A DNA stretch of 64,000 nucleotides, taken from Oligoflexus sp. FD111. Its GTDB lineage: Bacteria > Bdellovibrionota_B > Oligoflexia > Oligoflexales > Oligoflexaceae. Below, in pieces: positions 8,755 to 44,704 of the stretch. Numbering within the stretch: the stretch's first letter is position 1; each line of letters opens with the position of its first letter. The notes under the pieces are model-generated. The model was not told the origin of the DNA. It saw nothing but the letters and a program-made list of their open reading frames with translations, and searched no databases. Location: NCBI GenBank assembly GCA_048816425.1, contig JBMDZZ010000028.1, forward strand, positions 24,766 to 88,765, written 5' to 3'. The translations under genes and the position numbers were made by a program.

Positions 8755-8818
8755 TGCAGCATGTACTTACTGCAAGAGTGGCCATGGCATGGTTGTGGGT
8801 TAAAACCACATACGTCGG

Positions 8819-15153: not shown

Positions 15154-15173
15154 GAAAATTTTTAGGTAATGAA

Positions 15174-18100: not shown

Positions 18101-21100
18101 CTATGAATTCGACGAGCTAGGATTTTTAAAGGCATCTATAAATGCCAAAGGACATAGGACGCATTATAGCTACCACAATGATTTTGGCACTAGGATTCGA
18201 TCAATCGACCCCAATGGCCAAAGCTCGAATATTGACTATGACATGTGGTCGAGAGTTCGCTCAGAATGGACTTCACACGGAAGCTCTTCAAATGTTAGCT
18301 GGGAGTATTGCGACGAGATTAATGGTAGTTGTGAGAAAAATGAGATCATTAAACAAATATCATCAGCAAATGATGGTAGTGAATTGATTAATTATCTTGA
18401 CAGGCTGGAACGGGTTGTACGCGAAGAGACCCTCAACTTTGATGGTAAGCGTGTTTTCAAAAGGTTTGGATTTAGAGATAATGGACTTCAGGAAAAAACA
18501 TCTAAGCCATTTTTTGAAGGGGATTTGGTTTACTGGACGCAGATCGATTATGATGACTACAATCGCGTTGCTATGGTCGAAAACCCCGATGGATCGAAAA
18601 AAAGATTTCGATACCAGGGTTTTGAACGCATCGAAATAGATGATCTAGGTCATGAAACAAGATATCTAACCAACGCTCTGAAGCAGACTCTTTTGGTTAC
18701 AAATGCTAAAGGCGAAAAGGTTAAATACACTTACGATTCCAGAGGTAATCTCACCAAAATCCTAAACCCGGCTGGTCAGCTTACAGAGCTTTTCTATGAT
18801 GAACACGGTAGGATGATCCTTCTTGATGACCCCGCCGCAGGAGTTAGCCGAAAATATTACAACAGCCTGGATATGGTATATCGTTCCCAAGATGCTGACG
18901 GGATCGAAGTTACCTATGGCTTTGATAACCTAGCTCGAAAAGTATCTAAAACTTACTCAAAAGTTGGCAAAATTCTCTCGCAAGAAAGCTGGATTTATGA
19001 CGAGTCGGAAAATGGTATTGGCCAATTATCAGTCGCAAGTAAAGGCAGCTACTCACAAAGCTACCAATATGATGCGAAAGCAAGAATTAAGTCTCTAGCG
19101 ACAAGTTTTGCGGGTCAAAGTTATTTTGATACATATATTTATGACGAGCTTTCTCGGCTTAAGGAAAAAAACTTTGCAAGCGGCGAACATACAGCATATC
19201 AATACGGTCCCCATGGGGATCTGATCGAGATCACTGATAAGCTTCAAAAAAATACGTTATGGTCGTTAAATGAAACCACCGCAAGTGGATCTATCATCGG
19301 CTATAATCTGGGAAAAAATATTTCTATCAAAAATGAATTTGATCCCAAAACAGGACTTCTTCGTTCGACTCAGGCTAAAAATAGCACCGATGCCTTACTC
19401 CACGATTTGAGCTTTGATTTTGATAGTCTCGGAAATCTTCGTGAAAAAAAGGACCAACTAGCAGGCCATCGGGAGTTTTTTGATTATGATCAACTGAATC
19501 GACTCATTGTTGCAGGTTCCAATCTGTTTGGTGAGGAAAGCTATCGATACGATGTACTTGGAAATCTCATTGAAAAGAATAGTTCGTTAAGTCATCTAAG
19601 CCTTAGCTATCAAAGTAATTGTGGCGGCACTACAAATGGACAGAAGTTATGCTATCTTTCAAAGACTAGCTCGACGGGGGCAACAGAAAAACGGAACTTT
19701 TCCTATGACAAATCTGGTAAAATCTTATCAGACGGTGTGCGCAGATTCGAATATGCCCCGGGTGGCAAGCTTTCTAGAGTCGATAGCGTCGGAAAAACAA
19801 CCGGTTTTGTCTATGGCCCTGATGAGCGCCGCATCGAACGCTTTGATGAATTAGGCGGTGACACCACCTTAACACGCTATGTTGGTGATGGATCAGAGCT
19901 TAGCATCAAAGATGGAGAGAGTGTTTGGCGAACGGCTATAGCTCCTGGTGTTATCGCTACTAAAACTGCCAACGCGCGCAAGTTACATTTCCAGCTTACC
20001 GATCATCTTGGCAATATTTTAAAAGTTGTTGATGAGTCTGGAATAATCACTGAGCGCTACGATTACGATCCCTGGGGAGCTAAGCGCAAAGATGCCTTTA
20101 GTGTGGACGAAATTTTCGCGCGCACGAGCTTGCGTGGCTTTACTGGTCATGAACAGATTGATTCACAAAACCTCATCCATATGAATGGCCGGGTGTATCA
20201 TCCTGAAATAGGAAGATTCACTAGCCCTGACGCCTTTATTCAGGATAGTTATAACCTGCAAAGCCTTAACCGATATAGCTACGTTTGGAATAATCCCCTG
20301 ACCAATACTGATCCAAGCGGACATTTTTCTATCGGAAACTTCCTTGGCGGGCTAGCAGGATTTGTCACCGGCTTGGGTGATATGTTGGGAATCAATAGCG
20401 GTCTTGAACGCCTTTCCAGTTGGACTTATGCCAATCGAAGACAAATATACTCTGTAGCGATCATGGCAGCAAGTTGGTACGCAGGTGGATATTTTGGTGC
20501 CATGGAGCCGTGGCTTATGGCAGGTGGCTTTACTTCAGGCTATGTAGCCTCAGACGGAGATGTGGGCGTTGCCATGGTCTCACTTGTCACCGCCGTAGCC
20601 TTTTATGGAGTTGGGGAGGGCTTTCAATCGCCCTATTGGGCAGGCAGTCAACTAGCCGCCCCAGCTAAAGTTGCAAGCCATGGTTTTGTTGGCGGTTCAA
20701 GTTCGGTTCTTTTGGGCGGAGATTTTGAAAGCGGGTTTATGAGTGCGGCGGTCTCGGAAGCCTTTACTCAGTTTGGTACATATGAGGCTCTTGGTGCCAA
20801 AACTAGTGATTTAGGAATTGCCGATGTTGCCTGGAACGCTGTTGTTGCAGGCGCTGTAGGTGGAACAGTTTCTCGAATCACTGGTGGAAGCTTTGAGAAT
20901 GGATTTGCGACGGCTGCCTATGGAAGACTTTTTAATGAACTCTATCACCTGGGTAAACCCCATGATGAGGCCATTACTGTCTACGATGACGAAATAGAAA
21001 TTTGTACTGGTGATGGCATAAAGCATGCTGCTGTAGGGAAAATTTATCGCTCGGGTCTGGCTCTAGAAGATGATATTGTTACAGAAATTGTTGCAACGGG

Positions 21101-21428
21101 ATTTATTGGTGGTGTGCGAGCAGGAGTCAGATCGCTAGTCACATCAAAGAATCCAAATGGACTCGTTACAGTCACCAGATGGGGACGACCAGGATTGGAG
21201 TCGGGTGATTGGGTTATGAAGGGTGGTAAGACGTGGAAGAACTATACGCTATCAGGGAAGGGTCAACCCCAATGGTTGCCAGGGAACAACATCCCAGCAC
21301 CTATTAGCTCAGGTCAAACATTTTTTGTTCCTAAGCAAACCCTAAGATTTCCTATAAATGAAGGTGGGAAGGCTAACCCCCTGAATTACATAAAATATGG
21401 ATTAGGACAGAGACAGTACATACCATGA
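15174..21428 (+). CDS. TcB/TcC-like fusion toxin: signal peptide, SpvB/TcaC N-terminal domain, FG-GAP/VCBS propeller, RHS/YD shell and a C-terminal variable toxin
   Basis: SpvB-type: GALPGSLDVTQTGDLRYQIPIDLPQVGNGFSPQLGFGYNS...GLGWSF. FG-GAP-like: DLNKDGHLDFF, DIDRDGYSDII, DFNNDGILDIL, DLNRDGFPDLL, DVNADGIPDIV. There are many YD repeats. The RHS core end reads YDYDPWGAKR...GFTGHEQID...MNGRVYHPEIGRFTSPDAF...YSYVWNNPLTNTDPSGH and is followed by a 367-aa tail. Confidence 0.9.
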   Translation: MNNITGLIVLVTYMLFSVSVKAESVGALPGSLDVTQTGDLRYQIPIDLPQVGNGFSPQLGFGYNSLSPATFLGLGWSFSGISEIRRCAATEDQDGFQHLQNLSVKDRFCLDGQKLIANGAENYGKPNSEYRTFRDSYRKILLDENLNFLVFDRSGEISTYEPIGDGPTHWRIREHADRHGNYISFQYAKSSDTPYIDSIPLSIDFGGNRTSGLSHYRSVRFEYEEHHPNDILYRFGKAYKRSPLLKKIAIYSYENKIWDYRFQYRIGLSKQLTFLESVTKCVSDDDCLKPSKFEYDNDDRGEPFSTNGFLNILDSTNPGATWTRTTSVRTLIDLNKDGHLDFFGMRPFKMIMAYGSPDGFSEVREIESELAYRWQAARSPVSFGDIDRDGYSDIIIFTPDEVRIGYGDGESFPDILTFKDPELDMAKKPAHDQNSRFLQDFNNDGILDILAINAVSYTLYIGTGDRDRPFNEGITTRSDLGHIPADPRQNPRHIIDLNRDGFPDLLVFKNDAVVVALGSETGFLEPEAWSTDFLPGKGWLAGNSRRFFADVNADGIPDIVGNKHDGVWVALGTGYGFEPVSLWLSYFRRQDGWFPNSNFLVSFDVNGDDIADFVGFTARKIIVVLGNGASLSSPDGRIFEYSLPDRTSWDFKNDLVNFLTDFDNGRHGPILHTRMGDLYLRNNSPKNLLNRITDAYGRQHLIEWSSSLDPAIYRESFSQDYPIRSLAAHRPLVSSIQKTNGNGGLNRVSYKYYDGKLSIRGGGFLGFAKVEETDHASRNLSIKHYLQGNMPPTLGLPSKVENFQIIKGEKRLKRRINYEYRVRSDNNGYFQIYPESILTETYDENKQLLSQMSVTEVQDVVGNQLSSKTTITDRFGSYVTEITNQFDEDNYENWLIGRVTFAQSKTRGPHGPEITRKAKFSYDQETGEIIKETKYSGSDDELTKTFAYDPVFGHIITQTTRLKNFSGFSKSDIIARYEFDELGFLKASINAKGHRTHYSYHNDFGTRIRSIDPNGQSSNIDYDMWSRVRSEWTSHGSSSNVSWEYCDEINGSCEKNEIIKQISSANDGSELINYLDRLERVVREETLNFDGKRVFKRFGFRDNGLQEKTSKPFFEGDLVYWTQIDYDDYNRVAMVENPDGSKKRFRYQGFERIEIDDLGHETRYLTNALKQTLLVTNAKGEKVKYTYDSRGNLTKILNPAGQLTELFYDEHGRMILLDDPAAGVSRKYYNSLDMVYRSQDADGIEVTYGFDNLARKVSKTYSKVGKILSQESWIYDESENGIGQLSVASKGSYSQSYQYDAKARIKSLATSFAGQSYFDTYIYDELSRLKEKNFASGEHTAYQYGPHGDLIEITDKLQKNTLWSLNETTASGSIIGYNLGKNISIKNEFDPKTGLLRSTQAKNSTDALLHDLSFDFDSLGNLREKKDQLAGHREFFDYDQLNRLIVAGSNLFGEESYRYDVLGNLIEKNSSLSHLSLSYQSNCGGTTNGQKLCYLSKTSSTGATEKRNFSYDKSGKILSDGVRRFEYAPGGKLSRVDSVGKTTGFVYGPDERRIERFDELGGDTTLTRYVGDGSELSIKDGESVWRTAIAPGVIATKTANARKLHFQLTDHLGNILKVVDESGIITERYDYDPWGAKRKDAFSVDEIFARTSLRGFTGHEQIDSQNLIHMNGRVYHPEIGRFTSPDAFIQDSYNLQSLNRYSYVWNNPLTNTDPSGHFSIGNFLGGLAGFVTGLGDMLGINSGLERLSSWTYANRRQIYSVAIMAASWYAGGYFGAMEPWLMAGGFTSGYVASDGDVGVAMVSLVTAVAFYGVGEGFQSPYWAGSQLAAPAKVASHGFVGGSSSVLLGGDFESGFMSAAVSEAFTQFGTYEALGAKTSDLGIADVAWNAVVAGAVGGTVSRITGGSFENGFATAAYGRLFNELYHLGKPHDEAITVYDDEIEICTGDGIKHAAVGKIYRSGLALEDDIVTEIVATGFIGGVRAGVRSLVTSKNPNGLVTVTRWGRPGLESGDWVMKGGKTWKNYTLSGKGQPQWLPGNNIPAPISSGQTFFVPKQTLRFPINEGGKANPLNYIKYGLGQRQYIP

Positions 21429-23440: not shown

Positions 23441-24058
23441 ATGGGGAAAAAAGGAAATAAAAATCAATTTATAGAAGCAACCACCAAAATCCGGGAGAAA
23501 GGTGGCACTCTTCGCATGTCCGAAGCCCTCCAGATGGGTATCTCTCGCAAGACCCTCTATTCGATGCGCGACGAGGGAGTCTTAGAACAAATTAGTCGGG
23601 GTATTTACCGGCTAACCGAGCTAGCAGACCTTAGCCAGCCTGATCTTGTTACTGTCGCGAATCGAGCACCAAATGGGGTGATATGCTTAATATCTGCCCT
23701 TTCGTATCACGAGCTCACCACTCAAATTCCCCATGAGGTCCACCTAGCTATAGAGCGGGGAGCAGAGACGCCTCGCATCGATTATCCTCCGGTGGCCATT
23801 TACTGGTTTTCAGGAGCAGCTTTCCGCGAAGGAATAGAAGTTCACATGATCGATCAAATGCGCATACGGATCTACAGCCCTGAAAAGACGATCGCTGACT
23901 GCTTTAAATATCGCCATAAGATCGGGATGGATATTGTACTGGAGGCATTGAAGCTTTGGCGGGAAAAACGATCAGATAAAACCGAAGAGCTACTAAAAAT
24001 GGCACGTTTTTGCAGAGTCGAGCGTGTCATTCGACCTTATTTGGAGGCCATCATATGA
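23441..24058 (+). CDS. abiEi: AbiEi-family type IV toxin-antitoxin antitoxin (second copy)
   Basis: 205 aa. The N-terminal segment is LRMSEALQMGISRKTLYSMRDEGVLEQISRGIYRL. ATGA overlaps the downstream gene. Confidence 0.85.
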   Translation: MGKKGNKNQFIEATTKIREKGGTLRMSEALQMGISRKTLYSMRDEGVLEQISRGIYRLTELADLSQPDLVTVANRAPNGVICLISALSYHELTTQIPHEVHLAIERGAETPRIDYPPVAIYWFSGAAFREGIEVHMIDQMRIRIYSPEKTIADCFKYRHKIGMDIVLEALKLWREKRSDKTEELLKMARFCRVERVIRPYLEAII

Positions 24059-25017
24059 CTATAAAAAATCTTCCAGCGTCTGTACGAGCGCGCATCATGC
24101 AAAGGGCTAAAGACACAAACAGGCCTTTCCAAGAAGTCTTGCAATACTATGCCATGGAGCGGTTCTTATACCGATTATCACAGTCATCATACAATCAAAA
24201 CTTTGTTCTCAAAGGCGCATTAATGCTGCGTGCTTGGAATGCAGCGGATACTAGGCCAACACGAGATATTGACTTGCTTGGTCAAATAAATAATGAAACA
24301 GAGTATCTCACTCAAGTCTTTCGAGAAATTTGCGCTGCTAACGTTGAGGCAGATGGTATTTTTTATGACCCAGCGACTGTCAAAGGTGAAATAATCAAAG
24401 AGAATGCGACCTATCATGGAACTCGGATCATATTCCGTGGCAAACTCGAAAATGCTTCAATTCCTATGCAGATCGATATCGGTTTCGGCGATGTTGTTTC
24501 ACCAAAACCTATGGATATTGAATATCCAACTATTCTCGACTTTCCCGCTCCTAAGTTAAATGGATATCGGCCTGAAACCGTGATCGCTGAGAAGTTTCAA
24601 GCTATAGTGGCTCTTGGTACTCTTAACAGCCGTATGAAGGATTTCTATGATATTTGGCTCTTGAGTAGGCAGTTCAATTTTAAAGGCGCAAACATGGCAG
24701 AAGCGCTTGATGCCACCTTTAAGAATCGAAATACCCCAATGCTACAAAATCCTGATGCATTACAGACTCCGTATACTGAAAGTGATTCAGTTAAAAAGCA
24801 ATGGGCAGCGTTTATTAAAAGAAACCGAGCAATTGATATTCCTGTCTCATTTGTGGAAGTAGCGAATGCCATTTCAAAATTTGTGGAGCCATTCAGTGTC
24901 GAGAGAAATGAAGATATTCACAATCTTTTTTGGACGGCACCAGGCCCATGGAATTCGTCCGAGGAGGCTTTGCAGGAATTAGCAAAGATGGCTCAAGAAT
25001 TAGACATGGGATATTGA
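24055..25017 (+). CDS. abiEii: AbiEii/DUF1814 nucleotidyltransferase toxin (second copy) with an atypical 17-aa C-terminal tail
   Basis: The start at ATG 24055 (MTIKNLPASVRARIMQRAKDTNRPFQEVLQYYAMERFLYRL) overlaps the abiEi stop. The NTase motif is FVLKGALMLRAW...RPTRDIDL. The tail is SSEEALQELAKMAQELDMGY. Confidence 0.85.
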   Translation: MTIKNLPASVRARIMQRAKDTNRPFQEVLQYYAMERFLYRLSQSSYNQNFVLKGALMLRAWNAADTRPTRDIDLLGQINNETEYLTQVFREICAANVEADGIFYDPATVKGEIIKENATYHGTRIIFRGKLENASIPMQIDIGFGDVVSPKPMDIEYPTILDFPAPKLNGYRPETVIAEKFQAIVALGTLNSRMKDFYDIWLLSRQFNFKGANMAEALDATFKNRNTPMLQNPDALQTPYTESDSVKKQWAAFIKRNRAIDIPVSFVEVANAISKFVEPFSVERNEDIHNLFWTAPGPWNSSEEALQELAKMAQELDMGY

Positions 25018-25212: not shown

Positions 25213-26385
25213 CTATTCGCTCTCCGTTTCAAAATCCCAGAGAAATGGTCTAAATGCATTGACAAATGGATTTGTGTTTTCAAGGAAAAACTTCATGATA
25301 TCAGCCTTGGCTTCCTCAGAATAAATTTCTTTTACAGGCTTTTTAAAAATAATGGTCATGTCTAAGCTTGATTGGTTAGGCCTCCATAAAACTCCATTGG
25401 GAAGAATTTTAAGTATTTCATTCTTATGCTCATCAAGAAGCCTGAAAACTTTTTCATCAAATTGTGCTTTTTTTGTAGCACGAAAATATATCCCGACCTG
25501 TCCTGATGCTGGTGCGAAATACAAAGATATCCATGCTTTGCCAGATGGAGTTAAATTGAAGTAGAGATTCTGGCCTTTAGAAGCTTTAGGAAATGGCTGC
25601 TCAGGGTCGTCTAACCTAATTTTAGACAGGAAGTCAGACCAAAATTCGAAGTAATAGTTGCTTTCTTCACTTGTTTCACTAGACTCGATTTCTTCTTCTA
25701 CTGTAATTTGGCTGTTTTTAAACGAAAGTACGGTTCTTTCGATGATCGAAGTTTTCGCGTGTAATCGCGGGATGATGATTTTTTGCTCATTGTCCGCGTA
25801 TACATCGATTGTGATAAGAGAAAGATTGAAATGAAGATTAATGTGGTTTCTCAGATAGCTTGAAATAGCTGCCGTTTGAGACCGAATTCCATCTCCTGCT
25901 ATGATTAAGTGTAACCTTCCAGCTTGCAGATTATGCGATACATGATCTATGAACTCTGCTTCGTCGATCGTACTATTAGCGGAGTAAATCAACTCGAAAA
26001 GGTGGTTCCCGGATTTTTTATGGTGTCTTGAGACTTCTCTTTGAAGGTCTGCGTAAGACCATTGAGAGAATTCCTTAGCATAGTCTAGAATCTGTGCAAT
26101 GACCTTTCTTCGTGCTTCAGGATTTTTCCAAAGTTTGGTCTCGACCAGAACAATTTGGCCTCTTGGTGTCACGAAAAGTATATCAATCGGTCCAGCAGGT
26201 GTATAGAATTCACGTGCTATAGGCACAAGTTCTGCTAGGCCAGGATCAATCTCTTCAATTGGGATGGTCTCAGGATGCTTGAAAAGGAAATCTTGGAGCC
26301 ATTTCTCACTTAACTCTCCTCTACTACCGGTGGATAGAACTGACGATGATCCATCTGATTTCAATAAACAAAGTTTAAAAACCAT
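25213..26385 (-). CDS. PD-(D/E)xK nuclease-fold protein (NucS/DUF91-like N-terminal domain, DUF4268-like C-terminal part)
   Basis: ...WLQDFLFKHPETI...AGPIDILFVTPRGQIVLVETKLWKN gives a D ... E-x-K arrangement. The C-terminal YYFEFWSDFLSKI region resembles DUF4268 (recalled). Confidence 0.5.
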   Translation of the reverse strand: MVFKLCLLKSDGSSSVLSTGSRGELSEKWLQDFLFKHPETIPIEEIDPGLAELVPIAREFYTPAGPIDILFVTPRGQIVLVETKLWKNPEARRKVIAQILDYAKEFSQWSYADLQREVSRHHKKSGNHLFELIYSANSTIDEAEFIDHVSHNLQAGRLHLIIAGDGIRSQTAAISSYLRNHINLHFNLSLITIDVYADNEQKIIIPRLHAKTSIIERTVLSFKNSQITVEEEIESSETSEESNYYFEFWSDFLSKIRLDDPEQPFPKASKGQNLYFNLTPSGKAWISLYFAPASGQVGIYFRATKKAQFDEKVFRLLDEHKNEILKILPNGVLWRPNQSSLDMTIIFKKPVKEIYSEEAKADIMKFFLENTNPFVNAFRPFLWDFETESE

Positions 26386-27008
26386 TTTGATTCACTTTCA
26401 TTCTGATCTTTTGATGTTATCGGAAGATTTTAAGGGCAGTGCTAGGTAGGGTTTTCCTAACGTCGGGATCGCTAGGCAAGAACCGTTCGGTATATGGTGA
26501 GTAAAGTATTTTTTATAGATAGTTAAAGGCGATATTGAACTAAACCAAGGAAACGAGGAGCTTCGAGGAAGTGTGCAGTACATTAACCGTTGGTACAGAT
26601 TGCAATACGTGCCTGTAGCCACGTTAGTTATTTTTCTCGTGTGATTGTTTGTTTGATTTAGTAGCGAAATTGCCGAAAAATGAAAAAGACTTATTGATGG
26701 TTTATGGATTTGGTCCTGTCAAGACAAAAGCCTTTGATTAGCTTATATTAAAGCATTTAAATGAATTTTTGTTCAATCAAGCAGGATAACTAATCTGTTA
26801 GTTCGAAATCGCGTTTCAGTGTAATCAGGGAAATATTGCGCATGCTGATCGGCATGTCTTAGATCAAGATTTCCGCTCTCTTAAGTTTCTAATCGTAGAG
26901 CTTTTTATAAACAATAACATCAAGTTATATCGGAGTTCGTTAAGAGTCTAGGCAATAGGCCGAATAAACTATTTGCAAGATTTTTTTACCTTAACCGCCA
27001 GGTTCACC

Positions 27009-28157
27009 ATGATCGACCCAAAAAGCCATGACCGACTACGTAAAGAGATTAGTGCACGCCTGGTGGAAGATAAATCTATTCTAGACCTACTTCGGCGAGA
27101 AATATCTATTATCAAGTCGGACGTTCACCCTATTAAATCACAGTCATCAGCTTCGATTGCGCTTGTTGCTGCTGATGGAGGCAATAATAGCCTGAAATTT
27201 GATCCGTTCATGGTGCAGCTCGTACGAGTTGTTGACTCAAGCAATAATGAGTATTGTTTGGAAGCTATTACGCCAACAACCGATGTCATAGCATTAAGTC
27301 GAAGCCAGTTTAAAAAAGATGGAACGCCTAGGACAGCTTTAGGGACTATGATGCAGTTTCTAAATACCCCGACTTTACCCGATCTGTCCTACATGATTAA
27401 GAGTCCAGCTAGTAATGAACCAGTTTCAACTTCTTGGATTAAGGCCTATCGGGAGCTAGTCGAATGGGCCATACTTTTTAATATCGTAAGAACTAAGGAT
27501 TTTGCGACCGACACCCTTTTAATCTTTGACGGACTTTTACGCAGCAAGGTCTTTTCATCAGATAACTTTATAAAGCTTAAGGAAGGTTTTGCTGAGGCAA
27601 TAGAGCATCAACGGGTCAAACATCGCCGTAATATCTACTTGGCGGGCATCGCCAAACATTCGAAAGTCATCGAGCGCTATCGATTAGCTATGCATCTAGA
27701 AAGCATCTTGACCTGTGATTATCCCGCTTATGTCGAAATCCCTAGGGAAATTGAAGAGAAAGCTTATAAATGGTCTGAATATGCCAGGGGCGATGATAAC
27801 GTAGTTGAAGGTGAAGTGAATAGATTTGTCGCTGGTAAGATGTTTTTTGTTAAGTTTGGCACTTCCCTGCGCGATCCAATCTGGCCAATCGATATCTTCA
27901 CATCTCAACTGAGCCAAGCTCCAACCATCTTAGGTTGCATGCTGGAAGACGCTAAAAATGGCTTTCCAGTTCCTCATTATCCCAGATGCCTGCAAAGGGC
28001 TCATGATAATGCAGCTCTGGTCGATTTTGATACACATATTTTGCAAGACGAAATTTTGAATGCTCTACGCCTTGCTTTGGGCGACAGTTGGACAGTCTTG
28101 GATAGTTTTTTGATCCAGGATCACGATCCAGCGAGAGCGCGCTACAGGAAGGCTTGA
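27009..28157 (+). CDS. NurA-like nuclease
   Basis: NurA-type blocks are IALVAADGGNNSL, TLLIFDGLLRSKVF and IYLAGIAKHSKVIE. I chose the start at ATG 27009 (MIDPKSHDRL) rather than the TTG at 26973 in the ORF track. The stop lies 1 nt before the HerA-like start. Confidence 0.6.
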   Translation: MIDPKSHDRLRKEISARLVEDKSILDLLRREISIIKSDVHPIKSQSSASIALVAADGGNNSLKFDPFMVQLVRVVDSSNNEYCLEAITPTTDVIALSRSQFKKDGTPRTALGTMMQFLNTPTLPDLSYMIKSPASNEPVSTSWIKAYRELVEWAILFNIVRTKDFATDTLLIFDGLLRSKVFSSDNFIKLKEGFAEAIEHQRVKHRRNIYLAGIAKHSKVIERYRLAMHLESILTCDYPAYVEIPREIEEKAYKWSEYARGDDNVVEGEVNRFVAGKMFFVKFGTSLRDPIWPIDIFTSQLSQAPTILGCMLEDAKNGFPVPHYPRCLQRAHDNAALVDFDTHILQDEILNALRLALGDSWTVLDSFLIQDHDPARARYRKA

Positions 28158-28158
28158 T

Positions 28159-30294
28159 ATGGGACTAGAACTCTTTCCTAAAGATCGTATTGTAGGCGTG
28201 TTTCGTGGTTTTCAGGAAGGTGGCTATGAGTTTAAAGCTGATTTGGTTCTGCCTTACCAAGCTGACTTTCAAAACCGTCCTATGCATGGGCAGTTTCTCC
28301 TCATTCAATTGGAGACGCCCGACGAAGCGATTATGGGAAGGATTGCCTCACTTTCTTCCGAGGGTAGAATGGCATATGGCAATGGAGAAGAATTCAGTAT
28401 CAGAGCGGTTCAAGAGAGCCGGGATGTACCTGACGATCTTCGTCAGCAATATCTCCGTTATCGGGTAAGTGTCCGGATCTTAGGAGTTCTTAGAAAGACG
28501 GAAGATGATAAGGTCAAGTTTGCGCCGTCGCATCGTAGACTGCCTCATGTTGGTTCTCCAGTAGCATTTCCATCCGACCAAGTGCTCCGTGAAATTGTCG
28601 GTCATAACATTCAGGGGGCAAAAATTGGACACTTTGCACTGGGCGAGTTTGTGTATTGCGGTGATTCAGATGACACCGAACTTGACGGCTGGGCTTTAAA
28701 ATGTGAACCGGAAGTCGAGATCAGATTTTCTATTGATAAGTTAGTAGCGCGCAGAAGTTTTATCTTTGCGCGAGCTGGCTATGGTAAATCGAATCTAAAC
28801 AAGCTTCTCTTTAGCGCCCTATACCAGAATACGCCACTCGTTCAGAAGAGAGACAAGCAAGTTCCAGTAGGGACGGTGATATTCGACCCAGATGGAGAGT
28901 ATTTTTGGCCAGACGATAAAGGGAGGCCTGGTCTCTCCGATGTTCCTCACCTAGAGGACAAGCTTGTTGTATTTACTGACCGGCGGGCTCCAAGTCGCTT
29001 TTACCAATCTTTCGTTGCTGGTGGAATCCGGCTAGATATCAGAAGGTTAAGGCCTGCTGATATCATTGCTATCGCCCTTCCTCCCGAGAAGCAGGACCAG
29101 CAAAATGTTAGTAAATTAAAGGCTTTAGATGACAATCGTTGGGCCGAATTGGTCGATTTGATTTATTTAAATGGCAATGACACGACCATCGAGGATATGT
29201 GCCGTACCCTACGTCTTGAAATCGGTAGACAGGATGCCGAAGCTATTGCCGCTAGATCAAATATGTCTGTCATCGTGCGTCTGTTTCATGATCCCTCAAG
29301 TCAGTTCATGGATAAACTGCTCTATTGCCTCTCTAAAGGTAAACTTTGTGTCGTGGATGTGTCTCAGATGCGTGGGACCCAATCATTGATCCTTTCAGGT
29401 TTGGTTCTGAGACGAATCTTTGATAAGAACCAGGACGAGTTTACCAAGCAGCATCCGCAGACTATTCCGACTATTGCTGTGATTGAAGAAGCTCAATCTG
29501 TTTTAAATGACAAGGCGAGTGCCGCAGCTCCATACGTTGAATGGGTGAAAGAAGGTCGAAAATATGACCTTGGTGCGGTCTTGGTGACTCAGCAGCCGGG
29601 CAGTATACCTGTAGAAATTCTGAGTCAAGGAGATAATTGGTTTGTATTTCATCTGCTCTCATCAGCGGATCTTGCGTCTGCGAAGCATGCCAATGCTCAT
29701 TTCAGCCAAGATATTCTGAACTCGCTTTTAAATGAACCGATTAAAGGGCAGGGGGTTTTCTGGAGTTCAGAAGGCGGAACAGCATATCCGGTGCCTTTGC
29801 GGGTGCTTTCGTTCAATATGATCTACAAGATGACCGATCCGGAGTTCAATCGAAATCCTCATGATACATTCGCCAGTCAAGTCGAGCAACGGTTTGCTAG
29901 CATTGTAAGGCGAACCTCTGACCCGAAAGAGTCTGGTAATGCTAGTAACGGCGGAGCTTTAGGAAACCTGAATCAACCCAATTCCAGTGCGAATACTGAA
30001 AGTATAGTAAAAACTACCCGTGAAGATCCTCTTCGTAGCTTAGAGGAGAAGGCAAGGGAAAGAATTGAAAACGACGAATTTATTATGAACGCTATCAATA
30101 GCGAACAAGGTGTGGCCTGGGGAAGAATCAAAGCTGCGATAAAGGAAGTGGTTCCTGATGAGATGGATGATCCCGGAAAAATCGCTTATAACCTCGTGCC
30201 TTACGTCTTAGCTTCTCTATTAGGGGAAAAAAATAGCAAATGGGAGACTTATCGGCATGAAACCCGGAATACTACGTATGTGCGGGCAAAGTAA
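28159..30294 (+). CDS. HerA/FtsK-superfamily ATPase (DUF87-type) with a ~150-aa C-terminal extension
   Basis: Walker A FARAGYGKSNL, Walker B TIAVIEEAQSV, and LGAVLVTQQPGSI. The N-terminal barrel-like region reads IVGVFRGFQEGGYEFKADLVLPY...GQFLLIQL...IMGRIASL. Confidence 0.8.
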   Translation: MGLELFPKDRIVGVFRGFQEGGYEFKADLVLPYQADFQNRPMHGQFLLIQLETPDEAIMGRIASLSSEGRMAYGNGEEFSIRAVQESRDVPDDLRQQYLRYRVSVRILGVLRKTEDDKVKFAPSHRRLPHVGSPVAFPSDQVLREIVGHNIQGAKIGHFALGEFVYCGDSDDTELDGWALKCEPEVEIRFSIDKLVARRSFIFARAGYGKSNLNKLLFSALYQNTPLVQKRDKQVPVGTVIFDPDGEYFWPDDKGRPGLSDVPHLEDKLVVFTDRRAPSRFYQSFVAGGIRLDIRRLRPADIIAIALPPEKQDQQNVSKLKALDDNRWAELVDLIYLNGNDTTIEDMCRTLRLEIGRQDAEAIAARSNMSVIVRLFHDPSSQFMDKLLYCLSKGKLCVVDVSQMRGTQSLILSGLVLRRIFDKNQDEFTKQHPQTIPTIAVIEEAQSVLNDKASAAAPYVEWVKEGRKYDLGAVLVTQQPGSIPVEILSQGDNWFVFHLLSSADLASAKHANAHFSQDILNSLLNEPIKGQGVFWSSEGGTAYPVPLRVLSFNMIYKMTDPEFNRNPHDTFASQVEQRFASIVRRTSDPKESGNASNGGALGNLNQPNSSANTESIVKTTREDPLRSLEEKARERIENDEFIMNAINSEQGVAWGRIKAAIKEVVPDEMDDPGKIAYNLVPYVLASLLGEKNSKWETYRHETRNTTYVRAK

Positions 30295-30353
30295 ACTTAG
30301 CTATTTTTACGGTCGAAACTTGTGCCACTGGGACTTTTCATTTTAAGGTATGA

Positions 30354-30824
30354 TCAAACGGCATTGGGCACTTGGTTTTCCAGCTTTAATCGAAATAGAA
30401 TTTGTTGCAAAAGATCTTCTCCCATCATCTCCGGTTCTGATTCAAGGTCAACCGCAATCTGATGAATCCAGTAATCGGCTTCTCCAACAGAAATTTCAAT
30501 ACTTCGTATTTTTTCGTTTTTCTGCTTATTTGCATTAGGATAAATTAGCCAAGCATTTTTCGATCCACTTGCAACCATATAAGCCAACATTTGATAGGCG
30601 TCTGCTGTGTTAATAGTATCCTTTTCAAAACTAGCTTTATACTTTGTATCTAAAATGGTGGACGATATAGGTTCTTGCCTCAGGCTGATTTGTAGGTCAG
30701 GGTAGCATTTCACATGGCTTGTGCGGTCCAAATACATTGACTTTTGCAAATGCAGATCAATACCATATGCAGATGCCGCTCGACTTAGACTTTTACTGAC
30801 ATAGCGCTCAAATAATGAAGCCAT
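30354..30824 (-). CDS. stand-alone McrC-like PD-(D/E)xK nuclease domain (156 aa)
   Basis: LFERYVSKSL ... STILDTKYKA ... ADAYQMLAYMV matches the McrC/LlaJI-type C-terminal nuclease block (FE.fv ... DtKYK ... yQ..aY). It lacks the N-terminal half of McrC. Confidence 0.5.
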   Translation of the reverse strand: MASLFERYVSKSLSRAASAYGIDLHLQKSMYLDRTSHVKCYPDLQISLRQEPISSTILDTKYKASFEKDTINTADAYQMLAYMVASGSKNAWLIYPNANKQKNEKIRSIEISVGEADYWIHQIAVDLESEPEMMGEDLLQQILFRLKLENQVPNAV

Positions 30825-30934
30825 ATTGTAAACGCCCCATTAACAAACGTCTAGCCCACCCAAAAGGAAAATCCTAGACTTGTCCTAGCAAGCCGGGCAT
30901 CCATTCAGCCTGAGTTGTTAGCCAGTCTACGAAT

Positions 30935-32032
30935 TTAAAGATTAGATGGGTAACCTATAAAATTTATTGGCTTTAGCTGACTATGCTTATCAACGGATCC
31001 TTTTAGTACATATATTCTACCGCCAATACTAAATTCGAATACTCTGTAGATACGGTATGACTCTCCGAAGATCTTTGATTTCTCAATTTCATTTAAAGAA
31101 ATTTTATACGGAGTGTTGATTCCGCCGTTAGTTGTTTTTACTTCTATGTAAATCACTGAACCATTTTCATCGAAAGACTCAATGTCGTAACCTAAACCGT
31201 CGCCTTCTTTATCAGATACCCACTTTACCCTTTCTGCTAGATCGGGACGTCCTATAGAGCTCAGCTTAATTTTCTCAGTTTCATAAACGAATTTTTCACC
31301 TAAATTACCTAGCTCCTTATTTGTTGCATATAGAGCGTCATATTCAGGTTTTGAAGAATTAAAGTTCCTGTTTTGTTCTGCAGGCAATTGCAGGATTGGA
31401 GGGTCAACAAATATTTCCTTTGAAGCATACTTTGGTACGATGATGAAACCAAGTTCCGACAATATTCTAAAGCATTTGGTCCCTCGGCCTCCTTTAAAAC
31501 CAAAAAGAACTTGCCCAGTCACGTACCTAGCAGCTAAGCCAACAAGTGCTTTAGGAGGATAACGTCGTTCGTTATATAGGACGTCATATCCTGTCGACTC
31601 TTTAAATTTGTGCGAAATTTTTTGCTCGTCAAAATCCCTGATGGCGTCGATAATATGCTCGTACGTTATATTGTCTGGAATTTCGCTATCAGGAAGATAC
31701 TCTCTCTTTTTATCAATGCGATTCTGTCCTGGGTCGAATTCGTCATTTAACCACCTTTCGACCTTACTATGTGTCGTTGTACTTATCTCAAGCAATACCC
31801 GAACTGCACGAATCACTTCGTAAACCCAAGTGTTTCGATGACTTAGGGAATAAGGTATGTTTGTAAACGGATTTATTCCAAAGGCATGTTTGCTTAGATA
31901 AATATCCCAGAGTTTTCTATCAGATTCTTTTTGAGTCTTTTTTAAAGCAAGGTCATATATAAGCTTCTGTATTTCTCTATCAGGAAAAGCTTCACGTATT
32001 GGAGTTGGAAGTTTCAATGATTCAAAATTCAT
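30935..32032 (-). CDS. DUF3883 (restriction-endonuclease-like) protein with a central domain resembling the ScoMcrA-type sulfur-binding/DNA-reader domain
   Basis: DUF3883: GEKFVYETEKIKL...VKWVSDKEGDGLGYDIESFDENGSVIYIEVKTTNG...YKISLNEIEKSK...YRIYRVFEF. The central segment YDVLYNERRYPPKALVGLAARYVTG...FKGGRGTKCFRILSELGFIIV contains Y-P-x-x-A, which I recall as the sulfur-pocket residues of the SBD. Confidence 0.65.
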   Translation of the reverse strand: MNFESLKLPTPIREAFPDREIQKLIYDLALKKTQKESDRKLWDIYLSKHAFGINPFTNIPYSLSHRNTWVYEVIRAVRVLLEISTTTHSKVERWLNDEFDPGQNRIDKKREYLPDSEIPDNITYEHIIDAIRDFDEQKISHKFKESTGYDVLYNERRYPPKALVGLAARYVTGQVLFGFKGGRGTKCFRILSELGFIIVPKYASKEIFVDPPILQLPAEQNRNFNSSKPEYDALYATNKELGNLGEKFVYETEKIKLSSIGRPDLAERVKWVSDKEGDGLGYDIESFDENGSVIYIEVKTTNGGINTPYKISLNEIEKSKIFGESYRIYRVFEFSIGGRIYVLKGSVDKHSQLKPINFIGYPSNL

Positions 32033-32089
32033 GATTAGCTCCTTAATTCTGTATTGCCACGGAGTTCGACGTCAAAAAAATTTCCCATT

Positions 32090-32745
32090 TAATGTGAGAC
32101 ACATACACCTCGCCTATCTCAAAGTTTTTTTGCCAGCTCCGTGGCTGTAATTTCACCGTCGATCTTCTCCTTTACCTGCTGTGTCCATGCACTTGAGTAT
32201 CTGCGTTGGTTTCCCATGAACATATACGCCATCCGGAGTCATCGGATTACCACCTCGCTTGGGTATCAATGTCTAGCGCGGACGATGGGAGTTATAGCGA
32301 TGCTTGAATTTGGCCAATCTCTCGTACTGCAAACGGTGAATCGGAGATTTTCCAGTAAACCTCTTCCTGTTTAAATGTCTGATGGAATCGCTCAAGAAGG
32401 CGTAGCTGTTGTGGCGTTCGATACTGAATGCGCACATATGTGAAATTGTCGTTATTTAATTATCCAGCAAATCGCCTCGGTACAAAGTATGGACCATTAT
32501 CAGTCACCAGGAATACAGGAGCATTCAGCTTGCTGCAAATCCTTTCTGCCTAGGCTTTCGCCACTTGCAAAGCTTCGCAGCAGCCAGCCGCCCCATAGCT
32601 AGGTGGGGAGTGGCATACAAATAGATAATGCGAGAAATAGTCAATCTCTGTCACTGCATTTCACCTGCCATGATCTGATGCATACACATATGTAATATCA
32701 TCCTGCCAGAACTGATTTGGACGCACAGGCAAGAGTTCATAAAGT
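32090..32745 (-). pseudogene. IS481/IS3-type DDE (rve) transposase pseudogene
   Basis: The minus-strand translation reads PVRPNQFWQDDITYVYASDHGR*NAVTEIDYFSHYL...A*AERICSKLNAPVFLVTDNGPYFVPRRFAG*. The DDE landmarks (W..DIT, DNGP.F) are interrupted by several stops. Confidence 0.65.
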
Positions 32746-32761
32746 TTTTGAGCTTGATACA

Positions 32762-32975
32762 TGAGGTGCGTTGAACATAATTGGAGAAAATCGAATCTTT
32801 TGCTAAGCTACTATAATTGCGAAGGAGATTCGGTAGATGCAAAAGAATAGGCTCCATCGTTCTTTCGCAACCTAGCAAAAAACCGACATTGTTCGCTGTG
32901 TACAGTCCGACTCATCAATCCAGCAAGGGCTTTTTCAAGTACCTAGAGGTTGAAAATAGCCAGTTCAAAGAGGGT
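32762..32975 (+). mobile_element. solo left-end fragment (copy C) of the IS3-family element found at 33747 and 54741
   Basis: It starts TGAGGTGCGTTGAACATAATTGGAGAAAATC, nearly identical to the left ends of copies A and B. It carries the orfA start (MQKNRLHRSFAT*QKTDIVR...) with a stop and an internal deletion of ~130 nt, and it ends near CAGTTCAAAGAGG. Confidence 0.6.
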
Positions 32976-33032
32976 CTCTGATGAGAAAGTGTTTTTTATA
33001 AACTATGTTGTTTTCGATAGGGGATCAAGCGC

Positions 33033-33620
33033 TTGGATTCAGTTCGTTGGTACGATCAGCATGCCCAAGATTTTTTTGATAGTACGATCAATGTAGAAAT
33101 GGGTGGTCTTTACTCCCGGTTTCTCAAAACGATGCAGCCAAAAGCAAAAATTTTGGATGCCGGTTGCGGAGCTGGACGGGATACTCTTTTTTTCTCAATG
33201 CAAGGGTATGACGTGCAGGCCTTTGATGCGGCACCCATATTGGTCGAGCTAGTCAGAAAGCATACCGGCATTAATGTGCAAGTCATGAGGTTTGAAGATC
33301 TCAAATGCCAAGATGAGTTCGATGGAGTATGGGCATGCGCCTCATTACTCCACTTTGATAAACATGAACTTGAAAGGGCATTAGCAAGGTTGTTTGCAGC
33401 CCTCAAGGTCGGTGGAGTACTTTATACTAGTTTTAAATATGGTACGGAAATATACGAACGTGATGGAAGGCAGTTTTATCCTTTTAACGAAGAAAGTTTT
33501 ATTGAGGTGATTACAGCTCATATGCATGTTGAACTCGATAGCATTTGGATAACTCATGATGTGCGTAAGGAAAGAACTGACGAGAAGTGGCTCAATTGTT
33601 TAGTACGACGTATTGAATAA
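33033..33620 (+). CDS. small class I SAM-dependent methyltransferase
   Basis: The SAM-binding motif is KILDAGCGAGRDTLFF, followed by VQAFDAAP and GVWACASLLH. The protein is 195 aa with a TTG start. The gene is sandwiched between IS fragments. Confidence 0.7.
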   Translation: MDSVRWYDQHAQDFFDSTINVEMGGLYSRFLKTMQPKAKILDAGCGAGRDTLFFSMQGYDVQAFDAAPILVELVRKHTGINVQVMRFEDLKCQDEFDGVWACASLLHFDKHELERALARLFAALKVGGVLYTSFKYGTEIYERDGRQFYPFNEESFIEVITAHMHVELDSIWITHDVRKERTDEKWLNCLVRRIE

Positions 33621-33746
33621 TTCCTGGAAATTTCCAGAATGGATGGCCGATTGTGATGTAGCGACGAGAGCTACCTCAAATATAACCATGTCACCACAAG
33701 TATCCCGTCCAGAAACAAACGATGACGCTGCTACAGGCTCATATTT

Positions 33747-35198
33747 TGAGGTGCGTTGAACATAATTGGAGAAAATCAAATCTTTTACTAAGCTATCATA
33801 ATTGCGAAGGAGATTCGATCGATACAAAAGATGATACCCCGTCGTTCTTTCATACACCCCAGCAAAAAGCCGACATTGTTCGCGGTGTCCAGTCGGCTTC
33901 ATCAATCCAGCAAGCGCTTGACCAGATTGGATTTACCAGCAGCTTATACTACAAATGGTCGAGGCAGCTTGAGGTTGGAATCAACACTAGCCTTCGCAAC
34001 TCAAAACCCCTAAATTCTGTCGAATTGAAGCGCCTAATGGCTGAAAATAGGCAGTTCAAAGAGGTTGTTCTCAACCAATCACTGGAATTGACCATTTTAA
34101 AAAAAGATTGAGTTTGGATCCATGAAGGAGGGCTTCAGAGTGAGCTACGAATATAAAGTCGCAGTGATTGAATTTGTCGAACGCTAACTGGAGCTTGGTC
34201 AATCGCGGAGCAATACTTTGGCAACTTTAAAGATTTCGCCTTCAACTTACTATATAGCTGGAATAAGGCTGTCCTTAATGCAGAAAAGCCTAAGAAACCA
34301 GCCAAGCCACATCCTATGAAATTGACTCCAGGTGAAAAAGAGCTCATCCTCGCAACAAAAAAAAACTATCCAACGATGAGGCATAGGCAGATATAGGACG
34401 TGATGCAAGGTGAAGGCTGCAAAATTTCGCCAAGTTCAGTTTTTACCGTCTTAAAAGCTAACGGAAAGGTTGAACCTTTTAAGCGGCGTGAAGCACCGTG
34501 GAAAGAGCCTAAATACGAAGTGCGAGCTAGAAACCTTATTTGGGGAAAGGATTGGACGAAGATCAAGATCAATCACGAAACCTGGCAGCTTTTGGCTCTC
34601 ATCGTTTTTTCTAGAAAAGTCATTGCATGGGATATCCAGCCAAGCATCAATGCGGGCCATATCAAGGCGATCTATAGCCAAGCACTTGCGGCCGAGCAAC
34701 TAACGCACAAAAAGCAAAAGCTCAAGTGACGGGTGGATCAAGGTTCGCCCAATACCTCTTGGTCATCAATGAGTTTATTGCAAGCCTTGCAGGTGAGCTA
34801 TCGCTTGCGCGAGTCAGAAGGCCTATCGACAATGCAATAACAGGGCGGTTTTACGGCACGATAAAGCAAGAAGAGATTTTTGTAGTTGGTAGCTATCCTG
34901 ACCTGTGATCAGCTAAATCTGAAATAGGAAACTACATCGAATTTTATAATGAATACAGGCCACATCAAGCAATATGGTATTTACGCCCGACTATATGCAT
35001 GAGCTGTACAATAAATCGAAAGCATTGGCTGAGCTAGGGGTCATGAAACATGCCACTAAACGTCGCCACCGCGAGTACTGAGAGTTGAGGGAAGCTTATG
35101 ATTTATAGCAGAAATTCAGGCAAGAGTTGACGAATGTGCCAAGCCAGGATATCACACAAACCTGATCGGCTTTCTCCAAGTTCGACTTAAGCACCACA
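33747..35198 (+). mobile_element. IS3-family insertion sequence, copy A (1452 bp), with orfA and orfB both pseudogenised
   Basis: Left end TGAGGTGCGTTGAAC, right end ...GTTCGACTTAAGCACCACA (reverse complement TGTGGTGCTTAAGTCGAAC, IR-like). The orfA-like segment is QQKADIVRGVQSASSIQQALDQIGFTSSLYYKWSRQLE. The orfB rve landmarks W..DWTKI, FSRKVIAWDI, DQGSPNTS and DNAITGRFYGTIKQEEIF are interrupted by several stops and frameshifts. Confidence 0.75.
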
Positions 35199-35400: not shown

Positions 35401-36285
35401 ATGAAACTAGGTGGGCATCAGACTTTTCACCTCAGAGAGTCATGGCTTCATAAGGGCATGGCCTCTCTAGTGAACGACCATAGAATTTTCCAAGACGCCA
35501 TGGCGTCAAGTAGGCTTGGAGTTGGCAAGAACATGGTCGAAGCCATGCGGTATTGGCTTCAGGCATGTCAACTTGTAAAGATTGATGACGAATATAGCCT
35601 AAGTAAAGTTGGATCGAAAATCTATGAAGCTGATCCTTTTTTTGAGCTAGATGGTACAGTGCTATTGCTACATTATTTACTCGCAACAAACGAGAGGCAA
35701 GCAACTGCATGGCACTGGTTTTTTAATAAGTTTGGTGCGACCGACTTCGACATAGATGGAGTCCAAGTATACTTAACGACCTATCTTGCAAACACACTGA
35801 AGAAAAATAGTAGCCCAAATGTTATTAGGCGAGAGATACAATGTTTGCTCAAGATGTATACGGATGTCGAGTACAGGATACGGGAAACCCCAGAAACAGA
35901 AAACCCCTCTCCATTTTGTAGGTTTAAAAGCATTCAAAAGGATGGTGAGAAATATCGTAAAGTTGGATTTGACGTTAACTTGATCGATCCACTTATTTAT
36001 AGCTACTGCTTATATCTATTCTGGATAATGACTGAACGCCCAGCAACAATTTCTTTCGAAAATATTTGCAAGCAGCCGGGTTCACCAGGGGTTATCTTTG
36101 GACTTTCGAGTGATAGCAATATCTATATTCTCGAATTAGCAAAGGAAATCGATTCTGCTCCGATAGCAATTAGCAGGAGTGGAGGGTATTTTTCGATATC
36201 AATTGATGAAGAAAAAGCCGCTAAAACACTAGATTTTTATTACGATAAATATTCTGATCTTTTGCAGGAATCAAGATGGCTATAA
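35401..36285 (+). CDS. sspB: SspB-like DUF4007 protein (phosphorothioation-system nickase family)
   Basis: The N-terminus MKLGGHQTFHLRESWLHKG matches the DUF4007 signature as I recall it (GHETF.LR..WL.KG). It is the first gene of a 4-gene block with an ATPase, a PAPS-reductase-like protein and a cysteine desulfurase. Confidence 0.7.
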   Translation: MKLGGHQTFHLRESWLHKGMASLVNDHRIFQDAMASSRLGVGKNMVEAMRYWLQACQLVKIDDEYSLSKVGSKIYEADPFFELDGTVLLLHYLLATNERQATAWHWFFNKFGATDFDIDGVQVYLTTYLANTLKKNSSPNVIRREIQCLLKMYTDVEYRIRETPETENPSPFCRFKSIQKDGEKYRKVGFDVNLIDPLIYSYCLYLFWIMTERPATISFENICKQPGSPGVIFGLSSDSNIYILELAKEIDSAPIAISRSGGYFSISIDEEKAAKTLDFYYDKYSDLLQESRWL

Positions 36286-39947: not shown

Positions 39948-39979
39948 TACCTATACAAAAGTATTGGGGTCCGTTTTTT

Positions 39980-40798: not shown

Positions 40799-40933
40799 CA
40801 TCACTATTTCGCGCTAGTACACTAGCGCAATGTCTTTTCCTGCTTGAGTTGTGATCTCAAAAGTAATACTTTGCCATTAGTCTTACTGCATCGCTTCTTG
40901 CGATGAAAAACTTCCAAATTCGAAGCAGATCAG

Positions 40934-42058: not shown

Positions 42059-42383
42059 TTATCGATTTTGAATTTAAGAGCTTCCCATATGCGTATAGTT
42101 TACCTTCTAAATCTTAAAGTAGCTATGAGAAAAAAAACGCACCAAAGGTGCCCAGGTGGTTTTCTAAAGATGTTCTATTAGCCAAACATTTTTATAAAGC
42201 GTGCCATAAAGAAATTTATTTCAGTGTTAAGTGTTTTGAGGCAGTTGATGATGCGCAATTAGAAATAACTTCATTTCGCTAATTGGGTTGCATCTCAATC
42301 TTGACAGAGTAAAAACTTAGTAATCAAAGGTGTTACTATGAAAATGGTATGGCCTTGCTGATAAATTCTTTAAATGTGATCAA

Positions 42384-42848: not shown

Positions 42849-42927
42849 ATGGATATGGAGCATCTTTTACATGAGAACAATCCTTCTGACACAAAATAAA
42901 AAATTATAACCTCTTAAGGATGCTTCC

Positions 42928-44700: not shown

Positions 44701-44704
44701 TATT

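Follow-up and report, generated by a model that had tools for sequence, protein, structure and literature searches.

The question posed by this locus is whether two adjacent genes, one for a NurA-like nuclease and one for a HerA-like ATPase, make up a working immune module, a DNA-repair machine or a dead remnant. The pair lies in a stretch of 64,000 nucleotides from Oligoflexus sp. FD111 (contig JBMDZZ010000028.1, positions 24,766 to 88,765; the whole analysed stretch is called the window, and all coordinates are counted from its first letter). It consists of two plus-strand open reading frames (ORFs), at 26973-28157 as listed (gene 1) and at 28159-30294 (gene 2). Both genes are real and intact, and with more than 2,870 clusters of gene 1 homologues at 90% identity they stand far beyond chance. 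We consider it probable, from sequence and comparative analysis, that the locus is an intact two-gene restriction-type module of a mobile cassette family and that it is still active in defence. As judged from profiles and modelled structure, the pair is a distant homologue of TdpAB and represents a branch of its own, well diverged, within the NurA and HerA superfamilies. According to published accounts (PMC12914056, PMC13223576; PDB entries 8wet, 8wfd and 8y1k), TdpAB is the HerA-like/NurA-like part of TdpABC, a restriction-modification system based on phosphorothioate (PT). A first-pass annotation of this DNA had held that no HerA defence system with a NurA effector was characterised, a view that is outdated now that TdpAB has been described and solved (8wet/8wfd; PMC12914056).

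The identity of gene 1 emerges through its relatives. Taken by itself, its protein matches nothing at E<=1 in any of the three libraries Pfam, NCBIfam and PADLOC, and a single-sequence search of the PDB returns TdpB as the sole match, at E=0.049. An exhaustive HMMER search yielded 491 representatives of gene 1 clusters at E<=1e-3, and 52 of them were aligned into a family profile (A2). This profile recovers TdpB at E=1.1e-12, followed at a distance by Sulfolobus NurA (2ygk, E=0.45), and 17 of the 52 aligned relatives individually match the Pfam NurA family (PF09376; best 3.2e-12). The window protein itself does not match PF09376, so that the search with NurA profiles once proposed as a check succeeds for some of the relatives and fails for the protein, whose membership is transitive. 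An AlphaFold (AF2) model based on a shallow 16-sequence alignment reached a predicted local distance difference test (pLDDT) score of 50, which the 52-sequence alignment raised to 90.6, with a predicted template modelling (pTM) score of 0.88. When this model was compared with the PDB by Foldseek, the sole strong match was TdpB (chain 8wfd_G, from the entry of TdpAB with AMPPNP and DNA; E=5.4e-11, template modelling (TM) score 0.62/0.66 over the full length), with 19% identity in the structural alignment. Argonaute PIWI domains (E>=1.5e-3) and EndoV come next, and the predicted RNase-H/PIWI-like nuclease fold is therefore the one expected of NurA. By transitive and structural evidence only, gene 1 is thus assigned to the NurA superfamily of nucleases, in agreement with its initial classification as NurA-type.

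The predicted active site appears complete. The first catalytic aspartate would be D56, in the AADGGN motif (residues 54-59, positions 27168-27185), which aligns with vAiDGgs of Sulfolobus NurA 2ygk; D56, G57 and G58 each reach at least 90% conservation across the 52 aligned sequences, and the equivalent substitution D49A inactivates Thermococcus kodakarensis NurA (PMC12977600). The catalytic glutamate is predicted to be E152, in RELVEWA (residues 148-154, positions 27450-27470), a block aligned with RdvlEWA of TdpB in which R148, E152, W153 and A154 are invariant or nearly so. The second catalytic aspartate would be D174, in LLIFDGLL (residues 170-177, positions 27516-27539), which aligns with lfikDGrL of TdpB and includes or adjoins the nearly invariant columns G175, L177 and R178. 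Further on, GIAKHSKV (residues 213-220, positions 27645-27668), with a nearly invariant G213, aligns with lAGVtKrSrll of TdpB. A C-terminal block of active-site type, YPRCLQRAHDNA (residues 324-335, positions 27978-28013), aligns with YPfPLlkAH of NurA 2ygk; here P325 and A331 are invariant and Q329 and A335 nearly so. The acidic pattern of the superfamily (DGG/S, E, DG-L and YP..L..AH) is accordingly represented by D56, E152, D174 and the YPRCLQRAH block. AADGGN, LLIFDGLL and GIAKHSKV had been picked out from the letters alone; all three are present at the sites given for them and fall on those columns of the family alignment where conservation is strongest.

Gene 2 (28159-30294, 711 residues) encodes a TdpA-like ATPase that is readily placed by sequence in the HerA/FtsK superfamily. 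It exceeds the gathering cut-off of Pfam DUF87 (PF01935), 23.2 bits, with a score of 68.9 over residues 184-420 (E=8.7e-19), and it matches the HerA models of PADLOC (best 1.8e-18). The NCBIfam HerA equivalogs, for repair as well as for anti-phage proteins, score far under their cut-offs (55.9 versus 800 for the anti-phage one), which places the protein in none of the named HerA subfamilies. In the PDB its best single-sequence match is TdpA (2.7e-20), and the family profile A3 recovers TdpA at 1.4e-36, archaeal HerA (4d2i) at 9.6e-20 and Sir2-HerA at 5e-18. All three elements of the ATPase site are intact and invariant in A3: Walker A, ARAGYGKSN (residues 204-212, positions 28768-28794), from A204 to S211; Walker B, VIEEA (residues 441-445, positions 29479-29493), at E443, E444 and A445; and EGRKYDLG (residues 465-472, positions 29551-29574), the arginine-finger-type motif of HerA ATPases, from E465 to K468, which aligns with keGRkygiG of TdpA. 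The same family and the same two Walker motifs had been proposed at first sight. The C-terminal extension noticed at that stage is likewise real. TdpA ends at a position equivalent to about residue 559, and beyond it gene 2 continues with a variable low-complexity linker (about residues 571-630, positions 29869-30045; identity to the window protein 0.12-0.14 and gaps up to 32% among 71 family members), followed by a conserved domain of about 80 residues (about 630-711, positions 30046-30291). This domain, marked by GVAWG..KA, LP, AYNLVP and W-E/H-S/T motifs, is absent from TdpA and is kept throughout the 71 members, including those from loci without a methyltransferase; it has no match in Pfam and no sequence match in the PDB.

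The two genes appear to form a coupled operon. All homologues of gene 1 begin at M-I/L-D/E-P, equivalent to ATG 27009, so this is probably the true start and the listed TTG 26973 an unlikely one; the nuclease gene would then span 27009-28157 and encode 382 residues. At the junction (28141-28161) the stop codon TGA (28155-28157) is separated by one base from ATG 28159, and a Shine-Dalgarno-like AGGAAGG stands 7-13 nt upstream of this start, a layout that makes translational coupling plausible. Coupling had been claimed from the stop-start spacing, which is borne out, with the AGGAAGG as a further element. No convincing promoter or terminator was found in a scan around the pair, where signals stay at background level, and no direct or inverted repeats flanking the pair mark an insertion. 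The guanine-plus-cytosine (GC) content is 45.0% for the pair (43.4% for gene 1, 45.9% for gene 2), 41.5-41.8% for the flanks and 39.8% for the whole window, which puts the pair at the 98.7th percentile of 3.3-kb windows. The spot counts of about 50%, against 30-42% in neighbouring blocks, were therefore wrong in their values and right in that the GC content of the pair is raised.

The pair belongs to a large family whose usual form has three genes. The exact gene 1 sequence is on record from an Oligoflexus sp. metagenome-assembled genome. When one genome was scanned for each species, a relative of gene 1 turned up in 237 species, always 58-63% identical to the window protein; according to the record titles these species span Bacteroidota, Chloroflexota, Planctomycetota, Cyanobacteriota, Latescibacterota, Gemmatimonadota, Verrucomicrobiota, Pseudomonadota, Abditibacteriota, Acidobacteriota, Desulfobacterota, Actinomycetota, Nitrospirota and Binatota. 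Both window proteins are 58-64% identical to their counterparts in at least 160 loci, within the range of about 55-65% that defines the family. In the first three contexts examined, a DNA methyltransferase (PF01555) follows the pair directly, amid unrelated flanks. This linkage is general, as a methyltransferase of the family type is present in 98 of 117 informative non-redundant loci (84%): directly after the pair and in the same orientation in 86, downstream on the opposite strand in 3, immediately upstream in 3 and elsewhere within 10 kb in 6, with none in the remaining 19. In each of ten methyltransferases examined, DPFCGRGT is located at about residue 40 and SPPY at about residue 238. SPPY in amino-methyltransferases points to N4-cytosine methylation, and the cassette enzyme probably makes N4-methylcytosine. 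When the ORFs flanking 88 loci were clustered, only the nuclease (86), the ATPase (81) and the methyltransferase (62) recurred. The next commonest neighbours, in at most 9 of the 88 loci each, are Type III Mod, Res, HsdM, UvrD-PDDEXK, Sacsin/NOV_C, WYL regulators and DUF3223. The survey of homologous neighbourhoods suggested in the first-pass annotation thus finds that the minor recurrent neighbours of the cassette are other defence genes. Taken together, the usual trio would carry out restriction-modification with a motor-nuclease complex in the role of the classical endonuclease. The nuclease is not covered by any model of PADLOC (2023), and the searchable literature gives no account of a NurA/HerA/methyltransferase cassette, so the family appears undescribed so far, with the proviso that An et al. 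(Nat Chem Biol 2025), on Tdp, may already mention such homologues.

The cassette moves between distant hosts and is kept under selection. Identity stays near-constant at about 60% across a dozen or more phyla, and synonymous divergence (dS) between cassettes of different orders is only 0.09-0.17, which points to recent horizontal transfer. The pairs with these values are L032/L055 and L034/L037 (related loci are cited here by their L numbers), that is, metagenome-assembled genomes (MAGs) of Gammaproteobacteria compared with Ectothiorhodospira and with Bordetella genomosp. 2. Horizontal acquisition, first suspected from base composition, thus finds its support in the patchy multi-phylum spread and in the low inter-order dS. 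The ratio of nonsynonymous to synonymous divergence (dN/dS) is 0.02-0.09 in pairs without a methyltransferase versus 0.04-0.12 in those linked to one. Strong purifying selection on the former indicates that such pairs are maintained and not decaying.

The window copy is itself one of these reduced forms. No methyltransferase of the family type, nor a remnant of one, was found anywhere in the 64-kb window (tblastn at E<=10; hmmsearch --max), a condition shared with the 19 of 117 loci mentioned above. Where the gene for this SPPY-type enzyme usually stands, a 59-bp spacer (30295-30353) leads into an unrelated gene on the minus strand. When the two proteins are concatenated and a neighbour-joining tree is built, the window pair and L085 (64% identity) form a deep two-member clade, both lacking the methyltransferase, and two further clades without it exist; a remnant was looked for in L085 as well and none was found. 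Since L085 is also intact, the loss would be old and the genes kept ever since. Both window ORFs are full length and both proteins retain every family-invariant residue, so the pair is best read as a maintained and probably active variant without methyltransferase, not as debris. A metagenome scan for this clade found nothing closer than 62% identity to the window, and the window and L085 share no flanking sequence. In L085, the 1.9 kb after herA (13279-15155) hold no gene and carry several repeats of about 60-70 nt in both orientations (CTCCATGAGGGCGAGGTTTCGTCCTCACCCACGAGCATGAATC...) that resemble miniature inverted-repeat transposable elements (MITEs).

How such a module could work can be sketched by analogy with TdpAB and with archaeal HerA-NurA. 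The three TdpAB entries contain 18 TdpA and 6 TdpB chains, which implies a 6:2 complex, and the HerA-like hexamer of the present family would carry a NurA-like dimer in the same way. Using ATP, the hexamer would pump duplex DNA into the nuclease, leading to its degradation. In the usual trio, the modification written by the cassette would mark self DNA and protect it, probably through a block of loading, translocation or cleavage. A copy without methyltransferase, like that of the window, might avoid self-damage through an unlinked methyltransferase elsewhere in the genome. Alternatively, the complex might require free DNA ends, which are absent from a circular chromosome.

The surroundings of the pair are rich in defence genes, as had been recognised from the start. 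Two AbiEi/AbiEii pairs (abortive infection toxin-antitoxin genes, plus strand) lie at 10062-11289 and 23441-25017, a YhcG/PDC-S02 gene at 8819-9724, a Fic protein gene at 5779-7299 and a DUF4268/NucS-like PDC-S11 gene at 25213-26385 on the minus strand; PDC-S36, Ssp and Pbe genes, located below, complete the cluster. Giant RHS/Tc-type toxins with FG-GAP, SpvB, TcdB and RHS repeats are encoded at 4-3885 and 15174-21428, and polymorphic-toxin genes (4-3885, 12023-21428 and 63070-63852) are interleaved with the defence genes, together with a matrixin-like metallopeptidase and a PT-HINT pretoxin domain. No tRNA gene was found in the 64 kb. Between the pair and the ssp genes, the interval 30354-34729 shows signs of rearrangement. 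On the minus strand it has a 156-residue ORF similar to McrC over the C-terminal third alone; the other features are a NOV_C/PDC-S36 gene, a small-molecule-type S-adenosylmethionine (SAM) methyltransferase of the TehB kind and helix-turn-helix (HTH) fragments of transposases. The NOV_C gene was compared with the Sacsin/NOV_C proteins of a proteobacterial clade described below and is not related to them.

Further downstream, single-strand phosphorothioation defence is represented by a complete Ssp system (35401-51396; PADLOC E values from 1e-57 to 1e-240), whose sspBCD-sspA operon (35401-42058, plus strand) starts 5.1 kb from the pair and holds the only PT-synthesis genes of the window. SspB (DUF4007), SspC (1223 residues), SspD (PAPS reductase) and SspA (cysteine desulfurase) are followed, after a 154-residue ORF without assignment, by SspF, SspG and SspH (42928-51396, plus strand), the last being a protein of 1734 residues with an FtsK domain. 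On the minus strand, PbeA (PLD and superfamily 2 (SF2) helicase, E=3e-236) and PbeC (DndD-like ABC ATPase, E=7e-137), listed in that order at 56324-58465 and 58928-61069, belong to Pbe, a PT-dependent restriction system; another 154-residue ORF separates them, and neither PbeB nor PbeD was identified. One PT writer is thus adjoined by two PT-linked restriction modules, SspFGH and Pbe. Between these, at 51587-54155 on the minus strand, lie a 677-residue ORF (weak Methyltransf_23, faint PDC-M04B) and an overlapping 187-residue ORF with no matches. The first-pass annotation had missed the complete Ssp system and the Pbe genes, 5-30 kb downstream of the pair, as well as the usual three-gene form of the family.

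Related loci add some variations. L088 (about 31% identity) is a full trio of nuclease, ATPase and methyltransferase; L090, another distant relative, has the methyltransferase upstream and a DUF6119 gene downstream; and L087, also distant, is a bare pair among housekeeping genes. L089 (2452-9465) shows the order SMC/Rad50-like, NurA, HerA, RecQ, looks like a bacterial repair operon and is the only relative examined whose recorded annotation carries Pfam NurA. In a proteobacterial clade (L030, L037, L047, L050 and L065, about 1400-9900) the pair stands directly downstream of a conserved block of a Type III-like Mod, a UvrD-PDDEXK helicase-nuclease of about 970 residues and a Sacsin/NOV_C protein of about 1,100 residues, which may be a further defence system not yet characterised; in L047 the block is represented by its last two genes, and the cassette methyltransferase is retained. 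Three proteobacterial loci without methyltransferase encode a conserved 248-residue DUF3223 protein just downstream of herA (L032, 5359-6105; L034, 7073-7819; L055, 3549-4295).

Against this background, it is decidedly unlikely that the pair is a DNA-repair machine for end resection, like the HerA-NurA of archaea and Deinococcus-Thermus, instead of an immune module. Both proteins do fall in the HerA and NurA superfamilies, some pairs stand amid housekeeping genes with no methyltransferase, as in L087, and the Pfam-NurA-positive L089 (27% identity) has genes for an SMC/Rad50-like ATPase and for a RecQ helicase on its two sides. However, Mre11, Rad50 or SbcCD-type genes do not recur in the 88 close-family neighbourhoods and none is found near the pair in the window; the absence of such synteny from the close family agrees with the preference for defence over repair in the first-pass annotation. 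The DNA methyltransferase linked in 84% of loci, the patchy distribution over phyla with a dS of about 0.1 between orders and the position of the window copy in a defence island speak in the same direction, and the closest characterised relative is a restriction complex (1.4e-36) ahead of the archaeal repair HerA (9.6e-20). Another explanation, which also seems unlikely, is that the pair is a dead remnant of the trio, which lost its methyltransferase in a rearrangement of the island and is now silenced or inactive. The missing methyltransferase, of which no trace is left, would fit such a history, and so would the partial McrC-like ORF and transposase HTH fragments just downstream, which suggest rearrangement, and the promoter and terminator signals that do not rise above background. 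Decay would hardly leave the ORFs full length with their catalytic motifs and all family-invariant residues intact, though, and the sister locus L085 is intact despite the same absence, while other clades without methyltransferase have a dN/dS of 0.02-0.09.

A third possibility arises from the neighbourhood, namely that the self mark was switched and that the pair now reads the PT written by SspABCD, as TdpAB reads the marks of TdpC. Its closest characterised relatives, TdpA and TdpB, act in PT-based restriction-modification, the usual methyltransferase is absent from the window, and the complete SspBCD-SspA stands 5 kb downstream in an island with two other PT-linked modules. As TdpAB belongs to a PT-based system, the linkage was examined across the family: Ssp or Pbe homologues occur within 10 kb in none of 170 related loci, including 19 without methyltransferase and L085, so that the adjacency is most simply a coincidence of island packing. 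Moreover, the interval between the pair and ssp is occupied by transposase fragments and by unrelated genes of the opposite strand, and SspFGH is already the cognate reader, all of which makes this reading very improbable. In a milder version, lineages without methyltransferase would be modification-independent, end-dependent DNA shredders. The preferred interpretation, a restriction-type module still active in defence, has points of its own to answer. The defence role of the family is deduced from homology and context, and the mechanistic details of TdpAB may not transfer, given an identity to TdpB of only 19%. Some cassettes lie among plain housekeeping genes (L001, L004, L087). Searches of 72,556 plasmids and of 50,697 phage genomes gave no homologue that could point to a vehicle of transfer. 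Finally, a motor-nuclease that works with no self mark ought to be dangerous if nothing else restrains it, and no restraint was identified.

If the proposed interpretation is true, the family represents a widespread type of restriction-modification in which a ring ATPase and an RNase-H-fold nuclease replace the endonuclease and methylation serves as the self mark. The Tdp principle would thereby extend far beyond extremophiles and PT chemistry, to hundreds of species from at least a dozen phyla. A natural comparison would be available between three forms, namely the complete trio, the pair by itself and the pair joined to other partners, and could reveal how self DNA is spared by a processive motor-nuclease. 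The lineages without methyltransferase are the puzzle here, as they are under strong purifying selection without an obvious gene for self-protection. Should the PT reading hold instead, one PT writer would serve three readers that differ in mechanism and share one island, namely SspFGH, Pbe and a TdpAB-like motor-nuclease.

Among known systems, TdpAB is the nearest: it too joins a HerA-type ATPase to a NurA-type nuclease, it is the best solved match of both window proteins, and it shares with the present family the logic of restriction-modification, through a linked DNA-modification gene. PT in self DNA is said to inhibit both translocation and cleavage by TdpAB. The relationship is nevertheless distant, with 19% identity for the nuclease and a match over the core only for the ATPase, which in the window carries the extra linker and the C-terminal domain of about 80 residues. 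The partner of the family is an SPPY-type methyltransferase and not the PT-writing TdpC, and the window copy lacks a partner; no third gene for a linked single-gene PT synthase stands in its operon, where no search with the TdpC sequence was made. Tdp was reported from extremophiles, whereas members of the family come from at least a dozen phyla, most of them mesophilic. With the HerA-NurA of archaea and Deinococcus-Thermus (2ygk, 4d2i), a hexameric motor with a dimeric nuclease, the pair shares the two superfamilies and the DGG and DG-L catalytic motifs, but the similarity is weaker (0.45 for 2ygk versus 1.1e-12 for TdpB; 9.6e-20 for 4d2i versus 1.4e-36 for TdpA), and the family is horizontally mobile, linked to a methyltransferase and free of a mre11-rad50 operon. 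It has been shown that T. kodakarensis HerA-NurA digests both strands of double-stranded DNA, and it has been suggested to act in defence (PMC12977600).

Other defence systems share the architecture in part. Sir2-HerA (Nezha) and DUF4297-HerA are two-gene defence operons that combine a HerA-type hexamer with an effector, and the PADLOC HerA models match the window ATPase; here, however, the effector is of NurA type, those systems have no linked methyltransferase, and neither a Sir2 nor a DUF4297 domain was found in the ORFs adjoining the window HerA. SspFGH and DndFGH are modules of a HerA/FtsK-type motor and a nuclease that read a DNA modification (PMC10853773). Their architecture differs altogether from that of the window pair, with a single 1,734-residue SspH that carries a restriction endonuclease (REase) domain plus SspF and SspG, and they have no NurA-type nuclease. 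As in Type I and Type III restriction-modification, a methyltransferase would mark self and an ATP-driven translocase would be coupled to a nuclease. No specificity subunit was identified in the cassette, and in contrast to Type I and III enzymes the motor is a ring-shaped HerA/FtsK ATPase instead of an SF2 helicase and the nuclease RNase-H/PIWI-like instead of PD-(D/E)xK. A NurA/HerA-type defence complex was thus already known in TdpAB; what appears to be new is the methyltransferase partner, the extra domain of the ATPase and the broad spread over phyla.

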